15,806 nucleotides of DNA. Origin: a virus. Taxonomy: Duplodnaviria; Heunggongvirae; Uroviricota; Caudoviricetes. Position 1 is the first letter of the stretch. The number at the start of each line of letters is the position of its first letter. The stretch lies in the IMG/VR virus record IMGVR_UViG_643348547_000009, one strand, 5' to 3'. This document shows, piece by piece, positions 1,462-15,806 of this stretch. The translations under genes were made by a program, and so were the position numbers. The notes beneath the pieces were generated by a model. That model was not told the DNA's origin. It ran no database searches and saw only the letters and a program-made list of their open reading frames with translations.

Positions 1462-1584
1462 ATATGTCCTTTTATCACTATATCAAGACAAACCATTGAT
1501 TTAATTAAATAATCTTCACTGCAAAAAGTGCCAAAAATCGCAAATTGACTACACCATTAACTACACCGTTCGGTGCACCGTATG

Positions 1585-1610
1585 AAACAACGTGGAACAA
1601 ATAGACACAA
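1585..1610. repeat. Three direct hexamer repeats (AAACAA, GAACAA, ACACAA) at exact 10 bp spacing; shares the 15-mer AACAACGTGGAACAA with 8861-8875
   Basis: Read directly: tgAAACAAcgtgGAACAAatagACACAAgaa. The 15-mer at 1586-1600 is identical to 8861-8875, and the flanks also align with indels. Confidence 0.6.
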
Positions 1611-1755
1611 GAAATATACAGGCGGATCATCTTTCCAGGGGGAAGCGCACCAATTCATGAGGGGCGTTAATGTCTATATGGGGATCTCCACCTACCTGGA
1701 TTTTTTTCCGGTTAAACGTTAATCAGGCTGGTGGGTTTTACCTGTTCTGTAGGAG

Positions 1756-1770
1756 TGGTCATTATGACCA
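1756..1770. repeat. Perfect 15 bp palindrome TGGTCATTATGACCA, copy 1
   Basis: Read directly; a 17 bp exact direct repeat GTGGTCATTATGACCAT is shared with 1850-1866. Confidence 0.7.
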
Positions 1771-1850
1771 TCCCTTATATCGTCCGAATGCCGGACGAAG
1801 GCACACATCAACCGTAACGAAAATCGTTATGGTTGCCTTGATGGTCTGCG

Positions 1851-1865
1851 TGGTCATTATGACCA
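1851..1865. repeat. Perfect 15 bp palindrome TGGTCATTATGACCA, copy 2
   Basis: Read directly; lies 95 bp downstream of copy 1 in the island/host junction zone. Confidence 0.7.
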
Positions 1866-1898
1866 TTCAGCCAATGACCTTAATCAGAATTTTTCGCT

Positions 1899-1922
1899 AA
1901 AAAATGACGTTGGCCACGTCAT
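1899..1922 (-). terminator. Candidate rho-independent terminator ending the packaging operon
   Basis: On the minus strand, inverted repeat ATGACGT / ACGTCAT (1904-1910 and 1916-1922) with a 5 nt loop, followed by a T6 run (A-run 1899-1904 on plus). About 70 nt downstream of the stop of ORF 1993-2274. Confidence 0.45.
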
Positions 1923-1992
1923 CCGGAAAGCACAAAATCACGTCGATTTTTAATGGATGGTTAAACCGTCTTTATCTCGATGTCCGTACGTA

Positions 1993-2274
1993 TTACGTAC
2001 GCAGTCGTTCCGGCTTCTTCCAGTGGTACGTTATTTTCTCCTTCTCCCGATACATCTCCACGCGGCGACGGTAGGCCAGCAACTCAAGAACTCTGGTTCG
2101 TATGTTGCGCATATCCACGCCATTAAGCTGGATACCATCACGGCGCATCACCTCAGCAACAACACGCGCATAATTTTCGGCTGTCACGCTGTCCGGCTGC
2201 GTGGTCTGTTCGTCAGCCTGCTGGTTGATTCCAGAGACGCGGCGGATTAATCGCAGTATTTCGGCTTCTGTCAT
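1993..2274 (-). CDS. Hypothetical 93 aa protein, last gene of the packaging operon
   Basis: ATG at 2274 with a GAGG Shine-Dalgarno 8 nt upstream; starts 13 nt after the TerL stop; basic C-terminus. I do not recognise the family. Confidence 0.5.
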   Translation of the reverse strand: MTEAEILRLIRRVSGINQQADEQTTQPDSVTAENYARVVAEVMRRDGIQLNGVDMRNIRTRVLELLAYRRRVEMYREKEKITYHWKKPERLRT

Positions 2275-2287
2275 GCTGCTGACCTCA

Positions 2288-3949
2288 TTACACCCCGCTA
2301 AATTCTTCCAGTTTCTGGCGGTGGCTGTCGCTTATATCAAAAGCAAAATCCTCATGCTCTGCCTGAAATGTACCAAACGCCATCAGTGCCGCTACGCTCG
2401 GGTCTATCTTGTTCGGTGATTTTTTCTTGTTCGGCTTGATATTGGCGTTCGCGTCACTCTGCATCACGACGTTACTCATCGACCAGGACAACACCGGATC
2501 GCCACGATGCACAATCACCCTGCGGTTAACAAAAACTTCGAACGATTTCGCCGCCGGACTGAATCTGAGGTAGGTTTGCGGGAACGGCTCCACCTCAAAG
2601 CCTGCCCCCTGTAATTGCGTTCTCAGGTGCGTGGCGTTCCACGTATCGAAGCCCACCAACCTGATATTAAATTTCTCGGCGTCCTGCATGATGTCATCTC
2701 TGATCCGGTCGTAATCAATGCAGTCGCCAGGCGTTGTGCATATCCAGCCCGCTTTAGCCCACTGGCGATAGACAGCGCGATTTTTATTGGCTGGGTTCTG
2801 TAGCTGGAACTCCGGCAGATAATGACGGGAAACCAGCATGATATTTTTACCGACCGGAAAGGCATAGCATACGCTGGAAATATCGCTGGTTGATGATAAG
2901 TCCAGCCCCGCGTAACACTCCTGACCGTGTAAATCTTCCTCCGTGAACGTTCCGGTACACTCAGCCCATGCACCATTACCCATCCACGGGGTAGTCCCCT
3001 GACACCAGATATTAAATCGCTTTGTCATCATCTCCACCCACTGCGACGGAATACCCCGCGCTTTCTGGATGGTTGAGGCCAGTTTTTCACGATCGACGGA
3101 AACATCGATGTTAGGGTTAGCCTTTATCCACATCGCCGGATCATCAACCTCGTTTTCGTCGTCCAGTTCGTAAATCAGTACAAAAATTGAATCGTTGACC
3201 TCTTCGCCGTCCAGGATCTGGCAGCAATAATCATAGTGCTGCTTACAGGCTGAAACGACGTTACTGCCCGATGTGGTAATGGCAAATAACAGCCCTTCGG
3301 GACGTGCGCCCATCCCCAGCTCAAGCGCGGAATAAACGCCGTTATCGGGGTGTAGGTGGTATTCGTCCACGATAGAAAGACTGGGGTTTGTCCCCTCGAT
3401 GGTTGCTGCTTTTGCTGCCAGCGGCTTTAACAGGCTGTTGCTTTTCGGGTGTATCACCTTATGCGCCTGAATATTCACCCGCCTGCGTAACGGTCGGGAT
3501 AAAAGGCACATCTGACGCGCATCATCAAAGACGATCCGCGCCTGGTCACGGCTCACCGCTGCGGTGTAGATATCCTGCTGACCGTTCTCCATAATCAGAA
3601 ACCAGTTAGCCAGAATCGCGGCGGTCGTGGATTTCGCATTTTTGCGCGGCACTTCGATAAAGGCGCTCGTGTATTTGCGCCGTCCGGTGGCCTTAACCTT
3701 AAAGCCGAGGATGCACGCAAAGGCGAACTGCTGCCACGGCTCCAGCTCAATGGGTCTGCCACGCATCGGTCCTTTTACGTGCGGGCACACCCTGGAAAAG
3801 GCAATAAACCGCTCCACAACCTCACGATCGAACGTGTAAAGGGGGCTTTTAAGGTCCGAAAAGTACCGTTTAACAGCCTGTTTTAACCGTTTACAGGCCG
3901 GAATTTTGCCCGTTTTTACGTCTTCTGCGTACTTATTCCAGGCGGTCAA
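2288..3949 (-). CDS. Phage terminase large subunit (553 aa)
   Basis: Walker-A-like PRKNAKST in the N-terminal ATPase region and an acidic nuclease-type C-terminal half; follows TerS directly. Start is TTG at 3949 with a GAGGA Shine-Dalgarno 5 nt upstream and overlaps the TerS 3' end by 17 nt; there is no in-frame ATG nearby. Confidence 0.88.
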   Translation of the reverse strand: MTAWNKYAEDVKTGKIPACKRLKQAVKRYFSDLKSPLYTFDREVVERFIAFSRVCPHVKGPMRGRPIELEPWQQFAFACILGFKVKATGRRKYTSAFIEVPRKNAKSTTAAILANWFLIMENGQQDIYTAAVSRDQARIVFDDARQMCLLSRPLRRRVNIQAHKVIHPKSNSLLKPLAAKAATIEGTNPSLSIVDEYHLHPDNGVYSALELGMGARPEGLLFAITTSGSNVVSACKQHYDYCCQILDGEEVNDSIFVLIYELDDENEVDDPAMWIKANPNIDVSVDREKLASTIQKARGIPSQWVEMMTKRFNIWCQGTTPWMGNGAWAECTGTFTEEDLHGQECYAGLDLSSTSDISSVCYAFPVGKNIMLVSRHYLPEFQLQNPANKNRAVYRQWAKAGWICTTPGDCIDYDRIRDDIMQDAEKFNIRLVGFDTWNATHLRTQLQGAGFEVEPFPQTYLRFSPAAKSFEVFVNRRVIVHRGDPVLSWSMSNVVMQSDANANIKPNKKKSPNKIDPSVAALMAFGTFQAEHEDFAFDISDSHRQKLEEFSGV

Positions 3950-4289
3950 GCTCGTCCTCTTCTTCTGTTTCCGGTGGATTTTTACGGCGGCTTATCGGGT
4001 CAAAACCGAGCAAGGAGGCCATTTTTATCATCACTCTTTCAGCGTCGGATTTTGCGCTTAATGCGGGGTTTCTGCTCTCGCCGCCCTGACTGTTAACAAT
4101 GCTGAACCCGCGCGCCGCAAGGTCTGCAACGGCTTTCCGGTAAATGGAGTAGTTGACGCAATACAGTTCCAGATTGCTCCAGTCGGCGGGGGTCAGGTCT
4201 CCCCGTTCCGCAAGCTGCCGCGATTTTTCCCGCCACTGCTTCACGGCGATATCATCCAGGTAGGCGGGGGCTTTCGGTGGTCTTGCCAT
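3933..4289 (-). CDS. Phage terminase small subunit, P27-like (118 aa)
   Basis: Small protein immediately upstream of and overlapping TerL, with an acidic C-terminal tail (ETEEEDELDRLE). The sequence resembles P27-family TerS as I remember it. Confidence 0.75.
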   Translation of the reverse strand: MARPPKAPAYLDDIAVKQWREKSRQLAERGDLTPADWSNLELYCVNYSIYRKAVADLAARGFSIVNSQGGESRNPALSAKSDAERVMIKMASLLGFDPISRRKNPPETEEEDELDRLE

Positions 4290-4340
4290 GCTTATTTTTC
4301 GTCAGATTATTTTTCAAAAAATTCCCGTGCATAAAAATTT

Positions 4341-4400
4341 GGGGAGGCGGTCGGTGCCCGGCGGGGTCGGGTTTGTCCTGAAAACGCCCCCCACCCCGTC
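4341..4400. other. Candidate cos / packaging recognition site in the HNH-TerS intergenic region
   Basis: GC-rich tract ggggaggcggtcggtgcccggcggggtcgggtttgtcctgaaaacgccccccaccccgtc, with a G-rich left end and a C-rich right end in inverted symmetry, lying between HNH and TerS where HNH-dependent cos sites usually sit. The first 10 nt (GGGGAGGCGG) resemble the start of the P2-type cohesive end GGCGAGGCGG, which I recall from memory. Confidence 0.35.
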
Positions 4401-4577
4401 ATACAGCCTCATCAGCGATTGCGGAAACATTCCATAACCTCGCGGTCACGGTCGGTTAATCGCTTCGCTGTGATGCGTTCTGCGCGTCCTGACGCTTTAT
4501 CTTTATGCCCTGTTTCCTGTGTCTTCCATGCGTCACGCTGCCTTATAAGTCCACGGATAAGGCGGTTTTGTTCCCGC

Positions 4578-5018
4578 TCATTCATCAGCGTCATACATCC
4601 AGTTATTGCGGTTAGCGGCCCGTTCTTCCTCTTCACGAAATCCACCTGCGGCACGCTTGCTTTTTGTTGCCGGATCAAGCCATTTCGTTTTCTGGTTATG
4701 GCACGCCTGACACAATGGTTGATGGTTCCATTCGGGCCAGAAGAGAACATCATCACCGCCATCGATGGGGATAATGTGATCCACCACCACGGCGGGCGTA
4801 TATATCCCCTTCTCAAGGCATCGCACGCATAACGGGTTTTTACTCAGATACATGGCGCGGTATTTGTCCCACTGTCTGGAGTACCCACGCGCGCGGCGGT
4901 GTCCTCGTCTGGCATCCTCTGCACGCCATGCCGCCCGCCTGTGCTCCTCACACTTGCCGGACTTCACGCGCCTGTTACAGCCTGGTTCTGTGCATCGTCT
5001 TAATGGTTGCCACGGCAT
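4578..5018 (-). CDS. HNH endonuclease, phage packaging-associated (146 aa)
   Basis: HNH-type motifs CVRCLEKG, VDHIIPIDGG and CQACHNQK; sits directly upstream of TerS as in HK97-like HNH/terminase systems. ATG at 5018 overlaps the stop of the upstream gene (ATGA). Confidence 0.85.
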   Translation of the reverse strand: MPWQPLRRCTEPGCNRRVKSGKCEEHRRAAWRAEDARRGHRRARGYSRQWDKYRAMYLSKNPLCVRCLEKGIYTPAVVVDHIIPIDGGDDVLFWPEWNHQPLCQACHNQKTKWLDPATKSKRAAGGFREEEERAANRNNWMYDADE

Positions 5019-5314
5019 CAGTACACCCCCACATCACGATAAACCGACCAGAGCATCCCTACAGCCAGCGGGATTTCTTTTGTGTCTCCATCCCCGACCG
5101 TGGCCCTGTATTCGTACAGTTGCGACACGTACATCATGCAGCCAATCTTTATGGCTGGCGTGAACTCCAGCCCGTCATCAAAGCGCCTGCCGATGTGTTT
5201 CTGGCACACCTCAAGCGCGGCGGCGATGTATCCGCTGATTAACTGGTCTTCCTCATTGCCATCAATGCGGCAATGGAGTTTCACTTCTTCCAGGGTGATT
5301 AATTCTGCTGTCAT
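5018..5314 (-). CDS. Head-tail connector protein, gp6-like (98 aa)
   Basis: N-terminal LEEVKLHCRIDGNEEDQLISGYIAAA pattern typical of gp6-like connector proteins; start and stop overlap neighbours by ATGA. Confidence 0.7.
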   Translation of the reverse strand: MTAELITLEEVKLHCRIDGNEEDQLISGYIAAALEVCQKHIGRRFDDGLEFTPAIKIGCMMYVSQLYEYRATVGDGDTKEIPLAVGMLWSVYRDVGVY

Positions 5315-5649
5315 CGTGGCGCACCTGTTTTACAAAGAATTTCCAGACGAGTCCTTTTACCGTCGGGAACGGGGGGGCCAACAATATCAAGCTCATTGCC
5401 GGAATAAGCCCCCGTGAGTACCCGTATCCGGCTGGATGCCGTAACATCCACACGAAAACGGATCCAGACTCTTACGGTTGCCTGTGCCGTTTCTGCACCT
5501 GCGGTCATGCGTTCCCGTCCGCTGATCCCTTTCACCTCCGCCCATACGGTGGCAACATCCTCCCATGTGCTTTTCATTGCACCGGAAGGGAGGCGGGAAA
5601 GTTTCGCGCTCATGATGACAATGCGATCCCTCATGCTCCCCGCTCTCAT
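5311..5649 (-). CDS. Phage head closure / head-tail joining protein (112 aa)
   Basis: Size, position between portal and connector, and resemblance to the head closure protein family; ATGA overlap with the portal stop. Confidence 0.68.
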   Translation of the reverse strand: MRAGSMRDRIVIMSAKLSRLPSGAMKSTWEDVATVWAEVKGISGRERMTAGAETAQATVRVWIRFRVDVTASSRIRVLTGAYSGNELDIVGPPVPDGKRTRLEILCKTGAPR

Positions 5650-6860
5650 GATTTGCCCTCTTTATCATCCTTTACTTCGATCTCCTGTTTCCAGGCCTGG
5701 CTGAACTCATCGCCACCATCACGCGGCGATAATCCCTCACGTTCGCGGGCTTCGTTCGGGCACATAACGCCGGACTTGATGCCGCGTTCATAGGTGGCAA
5801 AGCGTTCGCCAGGTGTGGCCCGTAACAGATCCGCGCTGTCAAACTCCACCTGATACCGGATACCAGGTACAGGCGAGGCCACCAGCAAAGCATTTTTTAT
5901 CTGCTGCTCAAAGTTCGCCAGCCACGGGCGCATCGTCATGGTGAGAAATGCGCGGCTTGCCTCGCTGAAATTGCTGTAGGTGCTGTTGCTGTATTCCTGC
6001 AGAAAAATCGGCGAGACGTTGAACATTCGGGCGATGTCTTCAATGGTGAAGCGACGGGAGGCCAGCCATTCAGCATCCTGGTTACTCATGCCAAGCTGCT
6101 GATAGCTCATACCCCCTTCAAGAATGGGCGTTTTTCCGGCGTTTCTGGCTCCTTTGTAGCGTTCCAGTGCGGCTAATGCCTGTTTGCCCTTCACGCCGTC
6201 CAGCCATTCGCCTGACGTGATAACCCCTGCTGCCATCATGCCATCACGCATCACGCTCGCGCCGTGGCGCTGTTGGGCCAGCCCAAGCCCCAGCGATTCG
6301 CGGCAGATGGTCACAGGTGAGCGCCCCATAAAGCCGTCATCCGTGGAGTAACGAAGGTGGAGAACCTCCCACGGTAAATAGTTGCGGGTGTTTCCGCTGT
6401 AAGCGTCAGTGATGCGGTAACGCCAGTTATGTTCCCCTGTCTGCTCAACATTCACCGACTGCGGCGGGTAAGGGTGCAAAGCCACTGGAAAACCATCACG
6501 CCCCCACTGAATCACCGCATAAGCATTACCGTTTAACAGGCAGTGGCGGACCATCATTCGCTTAAACTGATAGGGCGTCTGCCACGCGTTCGGGCGCTCG
6601 TTGAGGATATGATCGACCGGATGAGAATCAAGCCACTCGCGGGCCTCCTTCCCCTTCTCATTGCGTACCAGGTACAGGTAGCATGGCATAGTAGCCACCG
6701 CCTCAGAGATGACCGTGACGGCGTTCATGACGGCGGGGAGTGATTCCGCTGTCCCCGATGATACGTACTCACCCGCCCCCGTGTTCGATGTGCCAGCCAG
6801 CGCCATAAATTCATCCAGCGTCATGCTGCGATGCTCTTGTTTTCGTCTGAAAGGCCACAT
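5646..6860 (-). CDS. Phage portal protein, HK97 family (404 aa)
   Basis: About 400 aa protein adjacent to the prohead protease with an acidic C-terminal tail; GGGGG Shine-Dalgarno about 6 nt upstream of the ATG at 6860. Confidence 0.88.
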   Translation of the reverse strand: MWPFRRKQEHRSMTLDEFMALAGTSNTGAGEYVSSGTAESLPAVMNAVTVISEAVATMPCYLYLVRNEKGKEAREWLDSHPVDHILNERPNAWQTPYQFKRMMVRHCLLNGNAYAVIQWGRDGFPVALHPYPPQSVNVEQTGEHNWRYRITDAYSGNTRNYLPWEVLHLRYSTDDGFMGRSPVTICRESLGLGLAQQRHGASVMRDGMMAAGVITSGEWLDGVKGKQALAALERYKGARNAGKTPILEGGMSYQQLGMSNQDAEWLASRRFTIEDIARMFNVSPIFLQEYSNSTYSNFSEASRAFLTMTMRPWLANFEQQIKNALLVASPVPGIRYQVEFDSADLLRATPGERFATYERGIKSGVMCPNEAREREGLSPRDGGDEFSQAWKQEIEVKDDKEGKS

Positions 6861-6861
6861 A

Positions 6862-7437
6862 TCACACCCCCGCTAAATCCGCCCACCAGCGGCGATTATC
6901 CGCGCGTGGCATTTTTTCGGGGTGCTGCTCATACAGGGAACGGCGGGCCAGATCCACGCCGGAATCAGGGTAAGCCGGTACGGATGTAACGGTAATTTCG
7001 TACAGTTCCGCCACCAGCACGGTGCGCACGCATGGATCTGTTGTGGTATCCCATACATCCTTACGGGAACGAAAGCCAAAGCTCATCCCCGAGATATCAC
7101 CACGCTTAACCAGTTCGATAACGTCCCGCCCTGTACTGGTATCCGGTGGGGTCAGTTCAAAGCGTAACCCTGTTTCATCCTCTTCCAGTTTCAGCGTACC
7201 GGAACGGGTACGCCCCAGTAACATGCTGTGGTCGTGCTCATACAGGCCGCGAACGTCATTACCCGCCGCCAGCCACTCACTGAACGCCCCCCGCTGGAAT
7301 TTTTCGTAAAACTCACCCCATAGCAGATCAGAAAGGTTATTCCAGCGAACAACGTAACCCGTCAGCGTACTGGCTCCGCTGGTGGTGATTTCTGATGACC
7401 GGATTTCCATGCTCTTTTTCATATTTTTTTCACCCAT
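6862..7437 (-). CDS. HK97-family prohead protease (191 aa; start may instead be the ATG at 7422)
   Basis: Conserved protease-family segments LYEHDHS, GRTRSGTL and GMSFGF. The ATG at 7437 has no good Shine-Dalgarno; the in-frame ATG at 7422 has GGTGA about 9 nt upstream. Confidence 0.85.
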   Translation of the reverse strand: MGEKNMKKSMEIRSSEITTSGASTLTGYVVRWNNLSDLLWGEFYEKFQRGAFSEWLAAGNDVRGLYEHDHSMLLGRTRSGTLKLEEDETGLRFELTPPDTSTGRDVIELVKRGDISGMSFGFRSRKDVWDTTTDPCVRTVLVAELYEITVTSVPAYPDSGVDLARRSLYEQHPEKMPRADNRRWWADLAGV

Positions 7438-7445
7438 AAAACACC

Positions 7446-7468
7446 AAAGGGGCTTTTTAGCCCCTTTT
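7446..7468 (-). terminator. Stem-loop plus U-rich tract between the capsid and protease genes (candidate attenuator)
   Basis: Inverted repeat AAAGGGGC / GCCCCTTT (8 bp stem, 6 nt loop) 4 nt after the capsid stop; on the minus strand it is followed by GGTGTTTT and then the protease ATG. Confidence 0.4.
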
Positions 7469-7472
7469 TCTG

Positions 7473-8645
7473 TTAACCGCCGTTTTTCATCTCGAGGACT
7501 TTTATCGCGCGGGAGTCAACAACCCCGCCGCCGATGTATTTGTCCGTGTGTACCTTGTAGAAACCCGGCTCTGTAATGTTGTCCGGTCGGGTACGAATAC
7601 CCGTTTCATGGTCAACGATGAAATAACCGCGCTTAAAGTCACCGACAGCCAGCGGCGTTTTGCCTTTGCCGATGTCCGGCATACTTTCCAGGTAATAAAC
7701 AGGACGGCCCAGCAATGTGTCAGGTGCGCCCTCTTTGAGGCTGTCACGCCATACGTAATCACCGCTCTGGTTTTTCAGCTTCTGCAATGCTGCCGCTGTG
7801 CTCGAGTTCATCACCCATACGGCGTTCTTACGGTATTTCGCTTTCAGCTTGTAGAGGATGTCGATCAGTTCGTCCGCTGTAATGGCGGCTTCGGCTGCTG
7901 CTACCATTTTTTCAATGGTGCCAAAGGCGCGGGTTTTGTCGTTGGTTAGATCTCGGTTGTAACTCAGGAAACCTTTCGGCTTGCCAGTACCATTACCATT
8001 TACAAAATCATCTTCTTCGGTCGTGGCGAACGTATCGGCGATTTCAGACGATAACCAGCCCAGTACGTCCACCTCTGAAAAATCCAGAATTTCCTGTGTG
8101 GTTTTCGGGTAGGCATAGATCGGGTTAAGTTTGATGCTTACGCGCTCAACTTTCGGGGTGTTGGTTTCGTTACGCTTGCTGCCCTCGGTTCCATAATTTA
8201 CAGCCGCGCCACCTGTGGAAACCAGTTTCTGATATTCGTTTGATTTCGCCGTTTTCACGGTCGCAATCATTCGCATGACGCTTTCATCACTCAGTAACCG
8301 CATGACCTCGCGATCAAGCTCAGGGATAACGGTATAGCCACCGTCCTTGCCGCTGTTGCTAGTGGTGGATAATGAGCGAACGTCACCCGTTACGATGTAA
8401 TTGCGAAGTTCTGCGGGGTCAGTGGTCTGGCTGGCTTTACCTGGCTTGCTGCGCTCTTCGTCTGCAATGGCTTCAAGGCGGGAAATGTCTTTATCGAGGG
8501 ATTCAGCTTTAGCGCGTAATTCGTCAAATTTTGCGCCCTCAGCATCGTTAAGACTGCGGTTTTCTTTTTCCGCGTTCTCCAGCATGTCGCGCATCTGATT
8601 TTTAATGGCGGTTTTCTGCTGGCGTAATTCGATTATTCTCGGCAT
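7473..8645 (-). CDS. Major capsid protein, HK97 fold (390 aa)
   Basis: N-terminal coiled-coil scaffold-like delta domain (ELRQQKTAIKNQMRDMLENAEKE...), about 390 aa, adjacent to the prohead protease; ATG at 8645. Confidence 0.92.
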   Translation of the reverse strand: MPRIIELRQQKTAIKNQMRDMLENAEKENRSLNDAEGAKFDELRAKAESLDKDISRLEAIADEERSKPGKASQTTDPAELRNYIVTGDVRSLSTTSNSGKDGGYTVIPELDREVMRLLSDESVMRMIATVKTAKSNEYQKLVSTGGAAVNYGTEGSKRNETNTPKVERVSIKLNPIYAYPKTTQEILDFSEVDVLGWLSSEIADTFATTEEDDFVNGNGTGKPKGFLSYNRDLTNDKTRAFGTIEKMVAAAEAAITADELIDILYKLKAKYRKNAVWVMNSSTAAALQKLKNQSGDYVWRDSLKEGAPDTLLGRPVYYLESMPDIGKGKTPLAVGDFKRGYFIVDHETGIRTRPDNITEPGFYKVHTDKYIGGGVVDSRAIKVLEMKNGG

Positions 8646-8682
8646 AAAAAAAGTCCTGGGGTTAAGTAAGGAACTCCAGGAC
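8646..8682 (-). promoter_or_regulatory. Terminator-like hairpin plus T7 tract directly abutting the capsid start codon
   Basis: Minus strand reads GTCCTGG-(16 nt loop)-CCAGGAC-TTTTTTT-ATG. The only Shine-Dalgarno candidate (AGGA) is inside the 3' arm of the stem. Confidence 0.4.
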
Positions 8683-8859
8683 GCGGCAAAAACTCAACCG
8701 TTTTTCATAAGGAAATCAGCAATCGCACCGATCGTTTTCCCGCCTGGTAATGAATATTGGCGAGAACATTAACAGGCGGAAAAGTGGCCCCAGCGTCCTG
8801 GCACCACGGGCGAGAATAATCATGATTCAGTTCGGGTAAAATATGCCGATCCGGTCAGC

Positions 8860-8885
8860 GAACAACGTGGAACAACCACGAACAA
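8860..8885. repeat. Three GAACAA direct repeats at exact 10 bp spacing in the packaging-operon upstream region
   Basis: Read directly: cGAACAAcgtgGAACAAccacGAACAAataa; shares a 15-mer with 1586-1600. Confidence 0.6.
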
Positions 8886-8904
8886 ATAATTTACAAAACA
8901 TGAC

Positions 8905-8925
8905 AAAAAGCCGGATTGCTCCGGC
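8905..8925 (-). terminator. Candidate rho-independent terminator after the perC-like gene
   Basis: On the minus strand, GCCGGA-gcaa-TCCGGC (6 bp stem, tetraloop) followed by TTTTTGTCATGTTTTG, starting 7 nt after the perC-like stop. Confidence 0.5.
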
Positions 8926-8932
8926 TGTGTGA

Positions 8933-9205
8933 TTATCTGTCCTGGTAATTTCGCCATATTTCATCACCAGCACCATCCATACCCATTTCGGCATAAGTGC
9001 GATCGACCGCCTTTTTCAGGTCTCCGTAATTATCCGGCGGCTCCGGTGGCCTCTGTGCCTTCCTGGAACATTCCAGCCGTCGCATCGTGATGTGATGCCG
9101 TTCCTTGTCTGTCTCCACCAGTTGCATGACTTCACCCCATCGCGCCGACGCTCTCCGGTAAAAGCCTTTCGCCTCCAGTTCTTCCGCTATGCGGTCATGT
9201 ACCAT
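8933..9205 (-). CDS. PerC-family transcriptional regulator-like protein (90 aa)
   Basis: N-terminal pattern MVHDRIAEELEAKGFYRRASARW matches my recollection of PerC-family proteins; strong Shine-Dalgarno (GAGGGGGG); last gene before the head module. Confidence 0.55.
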   Translation of the reverse strand: MVHDRIAEELEAKGFYRRASARWGEVMQLVETDKERHHITMRRLECSRKAQRPPEPPDNYGDLKKAVDRTYAEMGMDGAGDEIWRNYQDR

Positions 9206-9214
9206 CGCCCCCCC

Positions 9215-9625
9215 TCAGAACGGAATATCATCACCGTAAGGGTCATCGCCTCCCGCTGGTGGCTGATTACCCTGTGTGCCTGTGGTCTTGCGTCGGCTCC
9301 CACCAGGTCGCGCCGTTCTGGCACTGATTACGCTGTCTGCAATAACCTGCCAGCCCTGCCGCGTTTCGCCGTTCTGGCCTGTCCACTGGCTTACCTGCAT
9401 GTTACCCGCCACGCTCACCAGCTCGCCTTTGTGGTGTTTTGCCAGTGCGTCGGCCTGTCTGCCAAACGCCAGGACGGATAACCACATCGTCGCCTGTCCG
9501 TCATCTGCCTGATTGCACGGCAGGGGGACCGCCATGCTTGCCATAGCCATTTGTGTGCCCTTGCTGGTGGTCTTTAACTGCGGGTCAGCCACCAGCCGCC
9601 CGTAAGCGGCTATCTGTGCTGTCAT
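9215..9625 (-). CDS. ssb: Single-stranded DNA-binding protein (136 aa)
   Basis: OB-fold-like N-terminal region alignable with E. coli SSB, a Gly/Pro/Gln-rich linker, and the acidic C-terminal tip DDIPF. Confidence 0.8.
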   Translation of the reverse strand: MTAQIAAYGRLVADPQLKTTSKGTQMAMASMAVPLPCNQADDGQATMWLSVLAFGRQADALAKHHKGELVSVAGNMQVSQWTGQNGETRQGWQVIADSVISARTARPGGSRRKTTGTQGNQPPAGGDDPYGDDIPF

Positions 9626-9879
9626 GATTCCACCTCTCCGGTTTTAACGTTGATGGTTGTTACCTGTTCCGCTTCGGCAATCTCCCGTTCCGTCAGCGTG
9701 GCAAAGTTTGCCGCCGCCGTGGTCATGAATGCGCTTATCAGGTCGGGATGTGCTTTCGCGTATCCTTCCCCCGTGTTGCGGTCGATGATTTTTATCGCCA
9801 CTCTCAGCCAGTGCTCTGTAAGGTCAATGGCGCGGTTATGCTGCTTCTTCTGATTATTAAGTTTTCCTGATGTGCGCAT
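9622..9879 (-). CDS. Hypothetical 85 aa protein between the ori and ssb
   Basis: ATG at 9879 with a GAGGGGG Shine-Dalgarno upstream; stop overlaps the ssb start (ATGA). Function unknown. Confidence 0.5.
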   Translation of the reverse strand: MRTSGKLNNQKKQHNRAIDLTEHWLRVAIKIIDRNTGEGYAKAHPDLISAFMTTAAANFATLTEREIAEAEQVTTINVKTGEVES

Positions 9880-9928
9880 TTTTATTTTTACCCCCTCGTT
9901 TAAAAAGTTTTGAGTTGTGCCTCCCCTT

Positions 9929-10154
9929 GTCTACCTTATCTACCTTACTGGCTCTCATGCCAGTAATGGCGCGGCTTTCAGCGGGGTAGAGTGCTTTTAT
10001 CCACTATCTACCCCGTATCTACCTCCCTGTCTGATTCAGGTAAAATCAGGTAGAGAGGGTAGATAGTAGGTAGACAGTGAAAAAAGGCTGTCTACCTAAG
10101 TTAATATACTGAATTAAATGTATTTTTCTTTACTCAGGTAGACAGGGTAGACAG
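9929..10154. repeat. Candidate replication origin: about 11 iterons with core GGTAGA / TCTACC in both orientations, plus an AT-rich stretch
   Basis: TCTACC at 9931, 9940, 10007, 10018 and 10091; GGTAGA at 9985, 10049, 10058, 10069, 10138 and 10147. AT-rich segment at about 10100-10130. Located immediately 3' of the primase gene. Confidence 0.65.
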
Positions 10155-10167
10155 CCATTGCAAAAAA

Positions 10168-11916
10168 TTATAAAAACGCGTCGCAATCGTCTGTTGTTAT
10201 TGCGTTAGTCTGCGTTACTCCCTTAACTTTCCGCGTAATATATTCATGTCCGTAAACTTTCGCGGCTGGCTTCATAGCCTTGCCAAAGTCATTTACGTTT
10301 AGCGGTTTGCTCCTGCCTGCGTATGCCATAAACGCCAGATAGACGCGGTAAAGGCTGTTTCTGGTCGTGTACTTCACTGAATCGCCACCGCCACCCATCA
10401 TCAGGCCGCGCGCTTCCTCCAGAAAATTCAGGAACTGGCAAAACTCAATAACCGGATCCGTCTGTTGCTTTATTGCCAGTGCTTCATCACCGTCACGCTG
10501 TTCCAGTAGTAAAGCCCGTGCCTTCTCAGGGTCGGTAAAGTTCGCCAGCAAGCGGCGGATAATGACAGGGATTTCAGCCGCGATCTTTTCCGGTAGCTCC
10601 CTGTCTTTTTCTGCCTCGCTTACGATATTGTCGAAGCGGAAAATAACCCGACGACGTGACACGCCTCCGGCCCGTTCGGTGAATATCATCGGGTTGTTAT
10701 TGGTCGCCAGCACCACCGCCCTGATTACCGTAGTGAAACGCTTTTCATATTTCGGGTTGATTTCCACGGGGTCGCCGCCCGTGATTTTCTTGATGCCCGT
10801 GCCTTCGCCTGTATATTTCGGCTGGTCTGCCAGGACGATAAGACGACTCCCGACAACCTGCGCACGCCCACCAGCATCATCAAGCGATGTCATTTCCGCG
10901 CTTACCGTGTTTTGTTTCCCCGCTAAAAGGCTGGCGATGTGGGTGAATGTACTTTTGCCGCTCCCGCCGTCTCCGGTGGCCTCAATAAACATCTGCCAGT
11001 CGTACCGGTTCGCCATAATCATGTACAGCGCGGCACATATACGCATCATCTTGCGCGAGTCTTTTCCGGCTGCGTGCTCAAGCCATTTATGAAAGTTTGG
11101 CGCGTTATCGCGGATGTTCTCCCCTGGTGCTGGTGGCGTGTACTCAATGCCGTTGTTCGTGGTGATCCAGTTCTCCGGCGTGTGCGGGGAAAATTCCCCC
11201 GTTTTCAGGTCAAGCGCACCATTGGCGAACGGCAGCAAATCGCCGGACGGCTCGCCCATTGGTTCGGCAATAACTTTTAACGCTTCCACGGCGTTATTGA
11301 TTACGCGCTTGCTGAAAGTGGCCCTGTGCTCTGAATAGATCGCCACCATTTCGCGGCTAAGTTCCATTGTGCTGACCGGACACCATACCCCGCCGCGCCA
11401 TACGTGAACGATTTCACTTTCCGGATGCACACAAACGCCATCAAATCGACCAGCAAGCATCTGTGCGCGCTCACTGTCTGCCATTTGTGCCAGTTGCGTA
11501 TTTTTCTGCTCCGGCATGGTAAGCCCTGCGGCAATATTTTCACGCTCAGCATTCAGATAGCGCCGCCAGTTTTCACACTTCTGGACGTGCATTCCTTCGG
11601 GGTAAAAATTTGCGTCCTGAATATCTGCCGCCGCCAGCTTCTGACCAATCTTTTTGGTCTCCACCAAATCCAGTTCTCCGGCCTGGTACAGCCTTACGCG
11701 TTTTTTTCCATCCGGAACAATTTTCAGTGCATCAAGTTCGGCAAGCTGATTTGGCCCAAGCCACACAGGCGGCACATTATCGCCGGATGCGGGGCCATCC
11801 TGCTCCTGCCATTGTTTCGCGTGCGACCAGGCATCACTACCCGCGAAAATAATTACCTCTGTGTCTTTGTGTTTTATTCCGCGTGGCTGTTTTTTTACGT
11901 TCGGTGCCAGTTTCAT
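10168..11916 (-). CDS. Phage/plasmid primase-helicase, P4 family (582 aa)
   Basis: Walker A motif GDGGSGKST in the C-terminal NTPase domain and a primase-like N-terminal half; ATG at 11916 with an AGGGG Shine-Dalgarno; followed by the iteron region. Confidence 0.88.
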   Translation of the reverse strand: MKLAPNVKKQPRGIKHKDTEVIIFAGSDAWSHAKQWQEQDGPASGDNVPPVWLGPNQLAELDALKIVPDGKKRVRLYQAGELDLVETKKIGQKLAAADIQDANFYPEGMHVQKCENWRRYLNAERENIAAGLTMPEQKNTQLAQMADSERAQMLAGRFDGVCVHPESEIVHVWRGGVWCPVSTMELSREMVAIYSEHRATFSKRVINNAVEALKVIAEPMGEPSGDLLPFANGALDLKTGEFSPHTPENWITTNNGIEYTPPAPGENIRDNAPNFHKWLEHAAGKDSRKMMRICAALYMIMANRYDWQMFIEATGDGGSGKSTFTHIASLLAGKQNTVSAEMTSLDDAGGRAQVVGSRLIVLADQPKYTGEGTGIKKITGGDPVEINPKYEKRFTTVIRAVVLATNNNPMIFTERAGGVSRRRVIFRFDNIVSEAEKDRELPEKIAAEIPVIIRRLLANFTDPEKARALLLEQRDGDEALAIKQQTDPVIEFCQFLNFLEEARGLMMGGGGDSVKYTTRNSLYRVYLAFMAYAGRSKPLNVNDFGKAMKPAAKVYGHEYITRKVKGVTQTNAITTDDCDAFL

Positions 11917-12212
11917 TTTTTACCCCTGAATACGTTAAGCATCTTTTTTATTTCCTGAATATTGGCGCGTGCTTTCTCCCTGCTGGTGGGCACGTTACGC
12001 GGTACGGCCTGCACCAGAGAAAAATCACGATCGAACTGATAAACAGGCATCACGCAATCATATTCGTAGCCTTCACGACGGTAGGTTACGCGCCGTTCCT
12101 CCACGCCCTTAATCATTACCATGCCGCCATATTTATCGCGGTAAATATCGCCGTTCATAAATTCAGGACGAGCGGGGCCGCTGGCAGTAACGCCAGAATT
12201 TTTATTTTTCAT
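11913..12212 (-). CDS. Small hypothetical protein (99 aa), possibly DUF4222-like (tentative)
   Basis: ATG at 12212; stop overlaps the primase start (ATGA). The RDKYGGMVMIKGVEERRVTYRREGYEYDCVMP segment resembles small proteins I recall upstream of P4-family primases. Confidence 0.5.
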   Translation of the reverse strand: MKNKNSGVTASGPARPEFMNGDIYRDKYGGMVMIKGVEERRVTYRREGYEYDCVMPVYQFDRDFSLVQAVPRNVPTSREKARANIQEIKKMLNVFRGKK

Positions 12213-12217
12213 GTTTT

Positions 12218-12445
12218 TTATTCTCCGGTGTGCTGCGCTTTATTATTCTCGTGAATTGCCATCACTGTATTTAATTCATTAATAACAGGCGTTAATAGCG
12301 TACGCACGGCAGAAAACATCATTGAATCAGATTCATCGCCACTTTCCGGCACATCAATTAACTTAAGTAGTAATGCGTCCATTTCCTTTGCGCGGATTAA
12401 TGCGTTTTCAGAATGAACAAGAACATCAAAGGGTATTTTATGCAT
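12218..12445 (-). CDS. Hypothetical 75 aa protein
   Basis: ATG at 12445 preceded by AGGGGGGGA; start overlaps the last codons of the upstream Icd-like ORF (ATGCATAA). The longer 109 aa reading in the ORF track has no Shine-Dalgarno. Confidence 0.5.
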   Translation of the reverse strand: MHKIPFDVLVHSENALIRAKEMDALLLKLIDVPESGDESDSMMFSAVRTLLTPVINELNTVMAIHENNKAQHTGE

Positions 12446-12902
12446 GACTCCCCCCCTGGCGAATACGGGCGACAAAAATAAGATGTGCGTGCGGCAGCTG
12501 TGCACGTGCTTCGCGCTCAGTGGCAGCGGTAACGGTGAATATTGCAATACTGTCTGTCAGGCACTGCATAAAGCGCCAGACAAAATAAGGGCGTGCGAAT
12601 ACAGCCATGTGAAAGGCTCCCAGATGAATTTTAAGGAGTCTCGCTACTACGCTGCTAAACATGGTGGCGAGACGTAACAGGGTTAGCAGACTGGTCATCT
12701 GGAAACCAGCGAGCACAAAGGCTCCCCCGTTACGCCCCGCCATAATGCGGGTATGGGTAGGTTTACGGACACAAAAAAACCGCTTATCGGATGTGGGCGG
12801 CTGTCCGCCAGATGTATTCAGGCTGCTAAACCCGGTCGCCATGTGGGCGACGGGGGAAGCATACAGCCCCGTGATAATTTTTTGCAAGCGGTTTTTACGC
12901 AT
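12438..12902 (-). CDS. Icd-like (P4 cell-division-inhibitor family) domain protein, copy 1; full ORF is 154 aa, and an internal start at 12608 would give 56 aa
   Basis: C-terminal WRF...ATEREARAQ...FVARIRQGGSHA is paralogous to the C-terminus of copy 2. The ATG at 12902 has an AGGGG Shine-Dalgarno and overlaps the copy 2 stop; the ATG at 12608 has a GGGAG Shine-Dalgarno. Confidence 0.45.
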   Translation of the reverse strand: MRKNRLQKIITGLYASPVAHMATGFSSLNTSGGQPPTSDKRFFCVRKPTHTRIMAGRNGGAFVLAGFQMTSLLTLLRLATMFSSVVARLLKIHLGAFHMAVFARPYFVWRFMQCLTDSIAIFTVTAATEREARAQLPHAHLIFVARIRQGGSHA

Positions 12903-13098
12903 GATGTGACCCCTGACGAATACGGGCGGCGAATACCATCACGCAGCCAGCCGGGGATTGCTGGCGTGCCTCCTGTTCGCTGGTGGCCTCAATGGTAATC
13001 ACGCGCGGTTGTGCCGTGCTCAGGGCGATAAAACGCCAGATGTATTTATTCAGGTTGTGCGAATCCCGCCCTTGCGGGTGTGTGGTATGATTTAACAT
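12895..13098 (-). CDS. Icd-like small protein, copy 2 (67 aa)
   Basis: ATG at 13098 with GAGG 5 nt upstream; ...KYIWRF...ATSEQEARQQ...FAARIRQGSHHA. The long upstream in-frame extension (353 aa ORF) is Cys/Arg-rich and antisense to plus-strand genes, so it is treated as non-coding. Confidence 0.5.
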   Translation of the reverse strand: MLNHTTHPQGRDSHNLNKYIWRFIALSTAQPRVITIEATSEQEARQQSPAGCVMVFAARIRQGSHHA

Positions 13099-13192
13099 AG
13101 CTACCTCGATACTTTCGCTATCGTTGGTGGTTAGAAGCCCCGTTACTGCTCCTACAGTGCGGGGTTTCGTCGTTTCTACACCTTGCCTTAAT

Positions 13193-13249
13193 AAGGTGTT
13201 GAACACCAATTTAAATCGAGGTGTTAAACACGTCAAGTGTTGAACACTT
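13193..13249. promoter_or_regulatory. Three palindromic operator-like sites GTGTT-N-AACAC in the divergent control region
   Basis: GGTGTTgAACACC at 13195-13207, GTGTTaAACAC at 13221-13231, and the perfect 15 bp site AAGTGTTgAACACTT at 13235-13249; centres are spaced 25 and 16 bp apart. Confidence 0.55.
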
Positions 13250-13268
13250 ATTTTTTTTCCTGCATACT
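13240..13268 (+). promoter_or_regulatory. Candidate sigma70 promoter for the plus-strand RHH gene, overlapping operator 3
   Basis: TTGAAC at 13240-13245, a 17 bp spacer containing a T8 run, and CATACT at 13263-13268, about 30 nt upstream of the ATG at 13298. Confidence 0.3.
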
Positions 13269-13297
13269 GCATTTGTTTTTTATGAAGGGTGCTCAAC

Positions 13298-13477
13298 ATG
13301 GCGACAAAAGCAGTAAACGCAAAATCACAAACAGTTGCGGCAAGGGTTCCACATGAAGTTATGAACAATGTTGAGGCGGTAAAAATGCCCGGCGAAAGTA
13401 CAGGGCAGTTTGTTACAGCTGCATTAAAGCGGGAAGTTGAATACCGCCAGCGTCGCAAGGCCAAAGAATCAGAATAA
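13298..13477 (+). CDS. Small ribbon-helix-helix-like DNA-binding protein (59 aa), candidate island regulator
   Basis: ATG at 13298 (the ORF track starts at an upstream GTG at 13289); AAGGG 9 nt upstream. The pattern ARVPHEVMNNVEAV...GESTGQFVTAALKREV fits a beta-strand, helix, helix (Arc/CopG-like) layout. Confidence 0.5.
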   Translation: MATKAVNAKSQTVAARVPHEVMNNVEAVKMPGESTGQFVTAALKREVEYRQRRKAKESE

Positions 13478-13534
13478 TCACTATCAGCGCCGTGGCGTGA
13501 GGTACTCCGGCGCATTGCTTTACAGGTCAGTACT

Positions 13535-13744
13535 ATGAGCAAAAAACACCGATCAGCAGATGAGATTTTTGCAGAACAACGAAGATTGCTTTTGCAAAGT
13601 ATCATTTCACGCCAGCAAGAGAAGGCGCGAGCTAAACAAATGCCACCAAATACAGAACCAGCGCCTACAAGATTTGCGCTTGATGACTTTCTCGATAAAC
13701 ACCCCAGGGTAATGAAAGCAAACAAAAACCGCCCACCAGGCTGA
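13535..13744 (+). CDS. Hypothetical 69 aa basic protein, second gene of the plus-strand module
   Basis: ATG at 13535 with a weak Shine-Dalgarno; co-directional with the RHH gene and followed by a strong terminator; no family recognised. Confidence 0.35.
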   Translation: MSKKHRSADEIFAEQRRLLLQSIISRQQEKARAKQMPPNTEPAPTRFALDDFLDKHPRVMKANKNRPPG

Positions 13745-13839
13745 TCACATTGCCCACCAGCCTGATAGCGGCTATCATCCCCGTGCTTATGTTTGAGATC
13801 ACACACACAAACGGCGCAGCGGGTTATCTGTTCAGAAAG

Positions 13840-13870
13840 GCGGCTCCATTTCGGGGCCGCTTTTTTTATT
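13840..13870 (+). terminator. Rho-independent terminator of the plus-strand module
   Basis: GCGGCTCC-atttc-GGGGCCGC (8 bp stem with one G-U pair) followed by TTTTTTTATT. Confidence 0.6.
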
Positions 13871-14013
13871 CCTGAAAAACCCCAATTTTGTTGTTTTTCA
13901 GTTTCACCAGGGCGAACGAATCCCCGCCCACGTTCTGGCGTATATTCAATCTTCATGGTTATAGCTCTGTGTTCAGATGATTGATGTGTGGCGGCTGCGT
14001 GCCGCCAGCGTGA

Positions 14014-14202
14014 TTAATGAACTGCCTTGCAGCTATCCTTCCAGGCCAGAACCTCGGATAAAGACCAGCCAACGGAACGACCGCCAAGTTTACGACGTGA
14101 TGGGAATTGTCCGGCCTTTTCCAGGCGGTAGCGACACGTACGGCTAAGGCCGGTTAGTTTTTCGCATTCTTTTTCACGTATAAACCGATCAGTGCTTAAC
14201 AC
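14014..14202 (-). CDS. alpA: AlpA-family phage transcriptional regulator (62 aa)
   Basis: HTH segment LTGLSRTCRYRLEKAGQFPSRRKLGGRSVGWSLSEVLAW typical of the AlpA family; GTG start at 14202 with an AAGGGGG Shine-Dalgarno 5 nt upstream; immediately downstream of int. Confidence 0.8.
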   Translation of the reverse strand: MLSTDRFIREKECEKLTGLSRTCRYRLEKAGQFPSRRKLGGRSVGWSLSEVLAWKDSCKAVH

Positions 14203-14361
14203 TATTGCCCCCTTTCGTTTCTTAAAGAGTTATTTCGTGTTCTATTGCGTTGGGATGTGTCTGATTGTGTCAGGATGATTCAGAGTTGGCAAATGTTGAG
14301 GCCGTATGGTTTACAGAAAGAGGAATAATCAGGATAAAATCATTTAATTTCATGTTAATAC

Positions 14362-14396
14362 AAAGGCATAAAATATTGTTTCATGCCTTTTTTCTC
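14362..14396. terminator. Hairpin with flanking T-runs between int and alpA (weak, possibly bidirectional)
   Basis: AAAGGCAT / ATGCCTTT arms (14362-14369 and 14383-14390) with a 13 nt loop, then TTTTTT on the plus strand and TTTGTATT on the minus strand. Confidence 0.3.
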
Positions 14397-14576
14397 GCTA
14401 TTTAAAGAGTGATTCGCTAGTGTATAAAAAACCAGTAACACATTAAAAATCAGCTACTTATAAATCCGTACACTTTTTCGCCTCTTGTTCGTAGTTGTTC
14501 CGCATTGTTGCTCATTGTTGCACGTTGTATCTGTTCGCATATCCAGTATGCGCATACTGAAAAAACACGAAAAAAA

Positions 14577-15806
14577 TTATTTTCTTCTGGCTACTGGTAG
14601 CGTGGTTACGTTTTCATGTGTTCCCGCCAGTATCCCTAACCGCTCCGTCCACATATCCAGCGCATTGCGTTTAGCATCCAGATAACGGGAATGATTATAA
14701 ACTCGCTGCATTCCTGGCATCTGGTGGCCTGTAAGCTGCTCCACGACGTGAGGATCCACGCCTAAATCGCTCAGCATCGTTGTAAAGGTGCGCCGGATGT
14801 CATGTAGTGACCAGTGAGGGTGATTTAGCCTCCTGTGCGCTAATCTGCCGTACTGCGACACGCTTGTTTCCTGTTTCACTTCCCCCAGCAATAAGCCCGT
14901 GTGCCTGTTCTGCTCCACCAGCTGCGTGACGAACGGCAGTATTGCTTCCGGTATGGGCCGGAATATTGCCACCTTCGTTTTGCTGTGTTCTTTCGGCACG
15001 GTCCAGAGCATTTCGGTAAAATCCCACTCGCTGATCTCCGATAACCTCAGTTCTACCGTCCGGCATCCGAACACAATCAGGAGGCGGATTAACGCGATGT
15101 AGTAGGGGGAGAATATTTTTTTGTCCAGTGCCTGCAATAATTCGCCCAGTTCTTTGGTGCTTAAGACACGCTCGCTTATATCCGGTTTTTTCCCAACGTC
15201 CGCCACACTCATATCATCAAGAACGTTGCTGATTGCATAGCGCCGCCTCCGGCAGAACTTAAGCGCCTGTTTGCACGTCTGTAGCAAGAATCCGGCAGTA
15301 ACAGGCGTTCGCTTTGCCACCTGGTCAAAACAGGCCAGCCAGTGCCGTAGCTCGCATTTATCCAGCGGCATAGCACCAATGTGCTGTATTACGTGATTAT
15401 TAAGGCGCTTTTTCAGGGCGGCATAATCCACGCGGTTTTCCTTTGCGTACGACTCAAGCCAGTAGGTGAGCGCATCGCCAACCGTTACCGGCTTTAACGC
15501 TTCCTGTACGGTGTAATTAAGCTCATGACGTGGATTTTTCCCCTCTGCCAGCCATGCGCGACACTGGGCGGCTTTTTCCCTGGCTGATTTCAGGCTCAGA
15601 TCAGGATAATTTCCCAGCTTAATGCGTTCCGGTGGTGCCCCCCTTCCCGTTCCGGCCCTGTAAGTGAAATACCAGGTTAAAAGGCCACTGGTTGAATGCC
15701 TGACGCTCAGGTTTCCACCGTCATTAAGAAAGGCTGTTTTTTGGGCGGGTGTGCCGTTGATTTTCCTCAGCTGTGTATCGCTCAGTTTGTTAAGTGCTCT
15801 GCTCAT
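14577..15806 (-). CDS. int: Site-specific tyrosine integrase, P4-type (409 aa)
   Basis: ATG is formed by the last three bases of the window. N-terminal arm-binding-like domain, and a C-terminal catalytic region (...HDIRRTFTT...YNHSRYLD) consistent with the tyrosine recombinase R/H/R/Y arrangement. Confidence 0.93.
   Translation of the reverse strand: MSRALNKLSDTQLRKINGTPAQKTAFLNDGGNLSVRHSTSGLLTWYFTYRAGTGRGAPPERIKLGNYPDLSLKSAREKAAQCRAWLAEGKNPRHELNYTVQEALKPVTVGDALTYWLESYAKENRVDYAALKKRLNNHVIQHIGAMPLDKCELRHWLACFDQVAKRTPVTAGFLLQTCKQALKFCRRRRYAISNVLDDMSVADVGKKPDISERVLSTKELGELLQALDKKIFSPYYIALIRLLIVFGCRTVELRLSEISEWDFTEMLWTVPKEHSKTKVAIFRPIPEAILPFVTQLVEQNRHTGLLLGEVKQETSVSQYGRLAHRRLNHPHWSLHDIRRTFTTMLSDLGVDPHVVEQLTGHQMPGMQRVYNHSRYLDAKRNALDMWTERLGILAGTHENVTTLPVARRK

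Follow-up and report, generated by a model that had tools for sequence, protein, structure and literature searches.

The stretch of DNA analysed here (the window, 15,806 bp in full) contains an island located between phoQ and its own integrase gene; the genes of the island all run on the minus strand and phoQ on the opposite one. Starting from the integrase side, the order is integrase, AlpA, Icd-like and HTH genes together with a C4 antisense RNA, DUF4222 and Pri-Rep. Past an intergenic gap filled with iterons follow the 85-aa phrog_1231 protein, SSB, PerC, HK97-type capsid, prohead protease and portal, and after the portal come the head completion protein, connector, HNH, TerS and TerL, and then phoQ. 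The genes and proteins around the gap are as follows:

14577-15806, minus strand: integrase
14014-14202, minus strand: AlpA
11913-12212, minus strand: DUF4222 protein, whose frame runs into the start of the initiator gene; it accompanies the cassette in every relative examined
10168-11916, minus strand: Pri-Rep initiator, 582 aa, P4 α-like D5_N/SF3 helicase with a predicted C-terminal origin-binding domain
9622-9879, minus strand: 85-aa protein, phrog_1231, always the first gene after the putative origin in the cassette
9215-9625, minus strand: island SSB, 136 aa, OB fold, with a C-terminal DDIPF tip

The island belongs to the capsid-forming PICIs (cf-PICIs), since int, alpA and rep are accompanied in it by capsid, protease, portal, connector, HNH, TerS and TerL genes, and no tail or lysis genes are present. 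Criteria published for this group include a size of 10-18 kb and the absence of tail and lysis genes (bioRxiv 10.1101/2025.02.11.637232), and the prototype cf-PICI, EcCIEDL933 (bioRxiv 10.1101/2022.09.08.507074), is the same kind of island, the two being likened by gene content alone. The best match to the island (1462-15806) among complete E. coli genomes is 97.4% identical over 90% of its length; 124 of these genomes cover at least 80% of it and none has an identical copy, and on sequence comparison the island is a mosaic variant. E. coli AR_0013 carries a copy of the gap that is 100% identical to that of the window, and its RefSeq gene annotation agrees with the cf-PICI gene set.

Several observations were made on the flanking parts of the island. 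The cassette of DUF4222, Pri-Rep, gap, 85-aa gene and SSB (9215-12212 of the window) is joined to at least four unrelated downstream modules when the window is compared with the loci L001, L003, L004, L005 and L010: an HK97-type cf-PICI head with terminase, a λ-like capsid with decoration genes, a ClpP-capsid fusion, and TerS with a ProQ-like gene. These pairings indicate, as far as the compared sequences go, that modules have been shuffled at the ssb/perC boundary or close to it. On the integrase side, the Rfam family C4 antisense RNA (RF01695) matches 12660-12747 on the minus strand, in the region of the Icd-like genes upstream of the replication genes; the match scores 72.7 bits, where the gathering threshold is 45. 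Phages P1 and P7 use C4 as their antisense immunity RNA, and here the C4 RNA together with the Icd-like region gives the impression of a c4/icd-type module on a PICI. In the same region, a minus-strand frame of 353 aa (12895-13956) matches PHROG "transcriptional repressor" families with its C-terminal part; in AR_0013 the annotation of the equivalent region is split into several short Icd-like genes and a pseudogene, so that the gene models differ. The SSB itself is recognised by Pfam SSB (E 1.3e-16) and by TIGR00621 (60.1 bits, cut-off 53.95). In E. coli SSB the tip DDDIPF contacts partner proteins, and the DDIPF of the island protein is close to it.

The gap between Pri-Rep and the 85-aa gene covers 288 bp (9880-10167) between two minus-strand genes, and most of it is occupied by an array of short repeats, which begins 16 nt past the stop codon of the initiator gene (10168-10170). 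The gap holds no credible ORF but only spurious frames of 20-49 aa, and no structured RNA was detected in it by Rfam at gathering thresholds, the C4 antisense RNA being the sole match in the window; a tRNA search likewise found none. The parts of the array, read from the initiator outwards, are:

9927-10154, minus strand: whole iteron array, the putative replication origin, with 11 GGTAGA in both orientations and a 302/311 match to the EcCICFT073 ori
10137-10154, minus strand: primase-proximal iteron pair, CTGTCTACC twice on the coding strand, 9 bp apart
10097-10136: AT-rich spacer (40 bp, 17.5% GC), where the DNA is presumed to unwind (melt)
10049-10096, minus strand: one iteron in inverted orientation (10088-10096) and then three direct ones (10069, 10058 and 10049)
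9927-10023, minus strand: distal module, roughly a mirror image, as indicated by the inverted repeats I1/I2, spacings and conservation

The hexamer GGTAGA/TCTACC occurs 13 times in the whole window when both strands are counted, and 11 of these copies lie at 9930-10151; the other two are singletons at 488 (in phoQ) and 15052 (in int), and there is no second iteron cluster within the 15,806 bp. Shuffling of the whole window gave 3.5 GGTAGA on average, with 0 of 200 shuffles reaching 13, and base composition predicts 0.11 copies per 222 bp against the 11 observed (Poisson P(>=11) about 6e-19). Once the copies are oriented alike and their flanks are added, the longer consensus RGGTAGAYAG emerges. 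On the plus strand, the orientations from 9930 to 10151 read - - + - - + + + - + +, and the start-to-start spacings are 9, 46, 22, 11, 31, 9, 11, 22, 46 and 9; orientations and spacings form a near-dyad, which is consistent with the inverted repeats I1 and I2. The proximal pair and the group at 10049-10096 together make up a module of six iterons, arranged as two, AT gap, one inverted and three. The AT-rich spacer within it is tied for the lowest GC content of any 40-mer in the window (window mean 51% GC), and it has two iterons on the initiator side and nine on the other. In the distal module, the iterons at 10018 and 10007 are followed by an opposite iteron at 9985, a 40-bp gap (9945-9984) and the iterons at 9939 and 9930; this second gap is not AT-rich and contains a conserved box, CAGTAATGGCGCGGCTTTCA, at 9961-9980. 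The initial annotation of this DNA had described about 11 such hexamers in both orientations, with an AT-rich stretch, immediately 3′ of a primase-helicase gene. Coordinates, copy number (exactly 11) and orientations all proved right, and both the AT-rich stretch and the position next to the stop codon are real.

The same array is present in EcCICFT073, the prototype E. coli PICI, which is inserted at the same chromosomal site, phoQ-roxA. The EcCICFT073 gap with short flanks is identical to the window at 302 of 311 positions (about 97%), all 11 iterons have the same offsets, and the 9 differences are substitutions in the spacers, with none in the iteron cores. Both islands share the order DUF4222, Pri-Rep, 288-bp gap, 85-aa gene, SSB and PerC. 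The two Pri-Rep proteins are 90% identical overall, with 70% identity in the first ~140 residues, 97% in the helicase part and 100% in the last 102 residues. Further downstream the islands differ, the window having an HK97-type head and its own terminase and EcCICFT073 a λ-like capsid with decoration genes. The window can thus be assigned to the EcCICFT073-type Pri-Rep/ori allele, as the origin region, the sequence, number and positions of the iterons, and the DNA-binding domain of the initiator all agree.

This assignment matters for the interpretation, for the EcCICFT073 replicon has been studied experimentally. According to Fillol-Salom et al. (2018, ISME J, PMC6092414), Gram-negative PICIs have their origins directly 3′ of the gene for the initiator. 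In the same study, plasmids carrying pri-ori, pri-Δori or Δpri-ori of EcCICFT073 were compared, rep being under an arabinose-inducible promoter, and deletion of either ori or pri significantly reduced colony formation, that is, plasmid maintenance, at the restrictive temperature of 44 °C; the wording used for the ori deletion is "significantly reduced", and abolition is not claimed (PMC6092414). Deletion of pri-rep from EcCICFT073 itself lowered island transfer about 100-fold, from about 8e3 to 50 (PMC6092414). To place these constructs on the sequence, the primers of the supplement were mapped onto the EcCICFT073 locus (L010), where the printed reverse primer is one C short and matches exactly after correction. 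By this mapping, the pri-ori insert spans L010 10198-12307 and the pri-Δori insert L010 10198-12000, and the Δori primer also matches the window at 10164-10184 with one mismatch. Because the insert ends fall at these places, the published Δori removed the equivalent of 9857-10163 of the window. The primer mapping further shows that the minimal replicon of EcCICFT073 consists of pri-rep and the ori segment only, SSB not being included. The strings GGTAGA and TCTACC do not appear in the main text of PMC6092414, although iterons are drawn in its Figure 2a, and no published report of Pri-Rep binding to GGTAGA was found. In effect, the replication assay of an ori-primase construct, proposed in the initial annotation as a check, has already been carried out on a sequence that is about 97% identical, with reduced maintenance upon deletion of ori.

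Taken with the comparisons given below, the array at 9927-10154 is most probably the vegetative replication origin of a capsid-forming PICI with a replicon of the EcCICFT073 type, and we put the probability of this reading at about 0.93. The repeats with their enrichment, conservation and layout were computed here, as were the domain homologies and the near-identity to EcCICFT073; the effects of Δori and Δpri-rep are published. The reading as an iteron-type origin is supported by the near-identity to EcCICFT073, the published Δori effect, the conservation and the domain homologies. The origin is real and had been rightly interpreted, yet it is already known as the EcCICFT073-type PICI origin published in 2018.

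To assess conservation, the window and three relatives from E. coli were aligned for footprinting; two of the relatives are about 77% identical across the gap, the third matches in part, and all three come from PICIs whose downstream modules differ. In these four E. coli variants, 59 of the 66 iteron columns (89%) are invariant against 54 of the 175 columns of all spacers (Fisher p 5e-17), namely 15 of 40 (38%) in the AT spacer and 39 of 135 (29%) in the other spacers. The proximal pair is invariant in 4 of 4 variants. The AT spacer is poorly conserved in sequence, but its length (39-40 bp) and low GC content (17-31%) are kept in the relatives. Outside the array, the leader and ribosome-binding site of the 85-aa gene (9880-9919) show 78% invariant columns. 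Of 5,426 complete E. coli genomes, 423 (8%) contain a match to the ori region, and nothing is annotated at the ori in the sampled RefSeq records.

Three smaller elements inside the array were examined on the same alignment. The box CAGTAATGGCGCGGCTTTCA (9961-9980) is almost invariant across the E. coli variants, while the spacers adjoining it diverge. A possible hairpin at 9945-9966 (TTACTGGC...GCCAGTAA) was rejected, as its left arm (9945-9952) is unconserved and only the right-hand sequence is constrained. The nonamer TTATCCACT (9996-10004) fits the DnaA box consensus at 8 of 9 positions; it is present in the window and in EcCICFT073 and absent from the RIVM_C029670, Br_112 and E166 variants. 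A DnaA-dependent origin was rejected as well, this single DnaA-box-like sequence being unconserved, and it is treated as chance or strain-specific.

Since the 85-aa gene, with its well-conserved leader and ribosome-binding site, follows directly on the array, and short inverted repeat arrays are typical of operators, the hexamers might instead be binding sites for a regulator (e.g., PerC, AlpA or the 85-aa protein) at a promoter of the 85-aa gene/ssb/perC/capsid operon. However, a consensus scan of 9500-10500 predicted no sigma-70-like promoter on the minus strand, nor a terminator after the initiator gene, and the lack of such a promoter was the reason for downgrading the operator reading. 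Moreover, the array goes with the initiator gene whatever module stands further downstream, distant homologues change the iteron and the DNA-binding domain of the initiator together, and the equivalent deletion impaired plasmid replication even though rep was driven by arabinose (PMC6092414). An operator as the main function of the array is accordingly very unlikely, whereas the array may, secondarily, contribute to autoregulation or to transcriptional activation of the origin.

Next to the replication origin, the initiator is the second element of the replicon, and its two ends behave differently:

10195-10461, minus strand: C-terminal winged-helix origin-binding domain, residues 486-574, the presumed reader of the iterons
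11515-11916, minus strand: N-terminal domain, residues 1-134, a weakly Toprim-like α/β fold and the variable part of Pri-Rep

The 582-aa gene bears the annotation label "DNA primase family" and shares 98% identity with a gene of Shigella flexneri SFBU1023. The window protein matches the Pfam families D5_N, DUF5906 and Pox_D5 as well as TIGR01613, and it is 41% identical over 432 residues to residues 326-756 of P4 α, that is, to the helicase and origin-binding portion; it also matches PDB 7OLA (SaPI5 PriRep5, cryo-EM) with E 6e-15. The C-terminal residues 486-574 match PDB 1KA8 (E 1.1e-6), deposited under the title "putative P4-specific DNA primase", which we take to be the origin-binding winged-helix domain of P4 α. 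This domain is 100% identical to that of EcCICFT073 and 83-100% identical within the group of GGTAGA iterons, and the corresponding domains share 47-51% identity within the group of TGTTCA iterons (Serratia, Morganella and P4). Between the two iteron groups, the C-terminal domain falls to 33-38% identity, against 43-61% in the helicase core. The C-terminal domain appears to track the iteron type, as would be expected if it is this domain that reads the iterons.

The N-terminal end gives a different picture. No match to Zn_Ribbon_Prim or Toprim_3 is found in the N-terminus of Pri-Rep, although P4 α and the Morganella homologue match both, and what remains are weak Toprim-like fold matches. Homologue searches with this domain found hardly anything but fragments from E. 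coli and Shigella and gave a shallow alignment; in this alignment, read by eye and without structural superposition, the position of Toprim motif I reads AGSDA instead of EGxxD, and no DxD motif is seen. As these motifs are degenerate, the domain is probably a catalytically inactive remnant of a Toprim domain, and priming would be left to the host. The same N-terminal module also occurs fused to AAA_25/RepA-type ATPases. The initial annotation had spoken of a primase-helicase gene and, with the element's own SSB, of a self-contained replication module. An own SSB is indeed encoded, but both "self-contained" and "primase" are overstated for a protein without the zinc-ribbon and Toprim domains of P4 α.

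Beyond E. coli, a genome-contig search with a single protein as query yielded three loci, which were used for comparison of the layout. The initiators of Serratia aquatilis and Morganella morganii are 52-53% identical to the window protein. After their stop codons follow two direct iterons, an AT-rich gap of about 35-55 bp (15% GC in Serratia), iterons in mixed orientation, and two inverted ones at the far end, and the iteron is TGTTCAC or TGTTCAT, not GGTAGA. In Serratia, all 9 exact TGTTCAC copies of the 7.7-kb locus fall in the origin region. A counterpart of the proximal pair stands at the same place in Serratia, in Morganella and in the P4 ori. Two further observations concern the PICI-like replicon of Serratia (L007 4790-5020): its TGTTCAC is essentially the type I iteron of P4 (TGTTCACC), and its initiator lacks the P4-type primase domain and has a short N-terminal module like that of the window (49% identity).

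The resemblance to P4 extends to the arrangement of the iterons. The layout of the six proximal iterons is that of the P4 ori (NC_001609), with two iterons, an AT gap (35 bp in P4 and 40 bp here), one inverted iteron and three more, and P4 α has in common with Pri-Rep the SF3 helicase and the origin-binding domain. The differences are that P4 α has an N-terminal primase with zinc ribbon and Toprim, both absent here, that the P4 iteron is of type I (TGTTCACC) and not GGTAGA, that a terminator stands between α and crr while none is predicted in the window, and that P4 has two separate cis elements, the cluster immediately 3′ of α being crr and ori lying 4.5 kb away, where the window has a single compact cluster. 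Given that the P4 cluster in the corresponding position is annotated crr and not ori, and that the spacer of the distal module is not AT-rich, it might be argued that the array is an accessory element of the crr kind only and that replication starts elsewhere in the island. This is extremely unlikely because no second iteron cluster exists in the window, the remaining hexamers being the singletons in phoQ and int; furthermore, the six proximal iterons with their AT gap are laid out as the P4 ori and not as a crr unit, and pri-rep and the ori segment alone form the minimal replicon of EcCICFT073.

The origins of the SaPIs are similar to that of the window in architecture. The SaPI ori lies just downstream of rep and has 6-12 iterons of 5-6 nt in opposite orientations flanking an AT-rich region, and SaPI Rep is a self-loading SF3 helicase whose C-terminal winged-helix domain binds the penta- or hexanucleotide iterons (Qiao et al. 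2022, PMC9371898). The same features recur in the window: the array is 3′ of the initiator gene, the number and length of its iterons are within the SaPI range, and the AT region is flanked by iterons. Opposed orientations are also found, the copies at 10137 and 10146 being on the plus strand and those at 10091, 10018, 10007, 9939 and 9930 on the minus strand, with three same-sense copies (10049-10069) interspersed among them. The initiator combines, by homology only, an SF3 helicase with a C-terminal winged helix. In contrast, there is no DNA similarity to SaPI origins, the iteron sequence is another one, and the AT element, roughly central and symmetric in SaPIs, is off-centre here (two against nine iterons). 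In SaPI5, PriRep5 is the product of a pri-rep fusion that includes a putative primase (PMC9371898), whereas the window protein has only the short Toprim-like N-terminal domain. The reading of this region as a PICI/SaPI and P4-like arrangement, as first proposed, is supported. Classical iteron-plasmid origins (RepA, π and TrfA) have tandem direct iterons of 17-22 bp, a winged-helix Rep that is not a helicase and, usually, DnaA boxes. An origin of this class was rejected for the window, whose iterons are 6-10 bp long and in both orientations, whose initiator is a helicase, and whose DnaA-box-like TTATCCACT is unconserved.

The iterons could also be thought of as a packaging site (cos or pac) for the TerS/TerL/HNH machinery of the island, as the specific packaging of their own DNA by cf-PICIs requires a site in cis, and some pac sites contain repeated short motifs. 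However, identical iterons accompany entirely different packaging modules in EcCICFT073 and other PICIs, and for this reason a function as cos or pac can for practical purposes be dismissed. The array is also 5.6 kb away from terS (3933-4289) and always adjoins the initiator gene, and the strain list of the EcCICFT073 study names the mutants Δcos.1 and Δcos.2 separately from the ori constructs (PMC6092414).

With the array read as the replication origin, a mechanism can be proposed by analogy with SaPI Rep and P4 α, from which the binding of the iterons by the winged helix, the melting of the AT-rich spacer, the loading of hexamers and the use of host DnaG are inferred. First of all, a helper phage would bring about AlpA-dependent transcription of the island. 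The C-terminal winged-helix domain of Pri-Rep would then bind the GGTAGA iterons, and SF3-type hexamers of Pri-Rep would assemble on both sides of the 40-bp AT-rich spacer and melt it, after which Pri-Rep would load itself as the replicative helicase. The unwound DNA would be coated by the island SSB, whose DDIPF tip may recruit host partners, and synthesis would probably be carried out by the host primase and Pol III.

A more far-reaching and rather doubtful idea is that the origin arose as a head-to-head fusion of a P4-ori-like unit with a mirror unit carrying the CAGTAATGGCGCGGCTTTCA box, and that the N-terminal domain of Pri-Rep serves as a recruitment or anti-helper interface. On this idea the box could bind some factor, and the second module might take the role that the distant crr has in P4. 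Its apparent loss of catalytic activity, its hypervariability and its exchangeability between helicase types are the reasons why the N-terminal domain is seen as such an interface and not as a primase.

In summary, the organisation and function of this type of origin were published in 2018, so no new question is opened by it. Its practical value is one of annotation: an array of about 230 bp marks the replication module of the PICI family. For the island itself, such an origin would let the satellite amplify after induction by a helper phage, which is needed for its high-frequency transfer.
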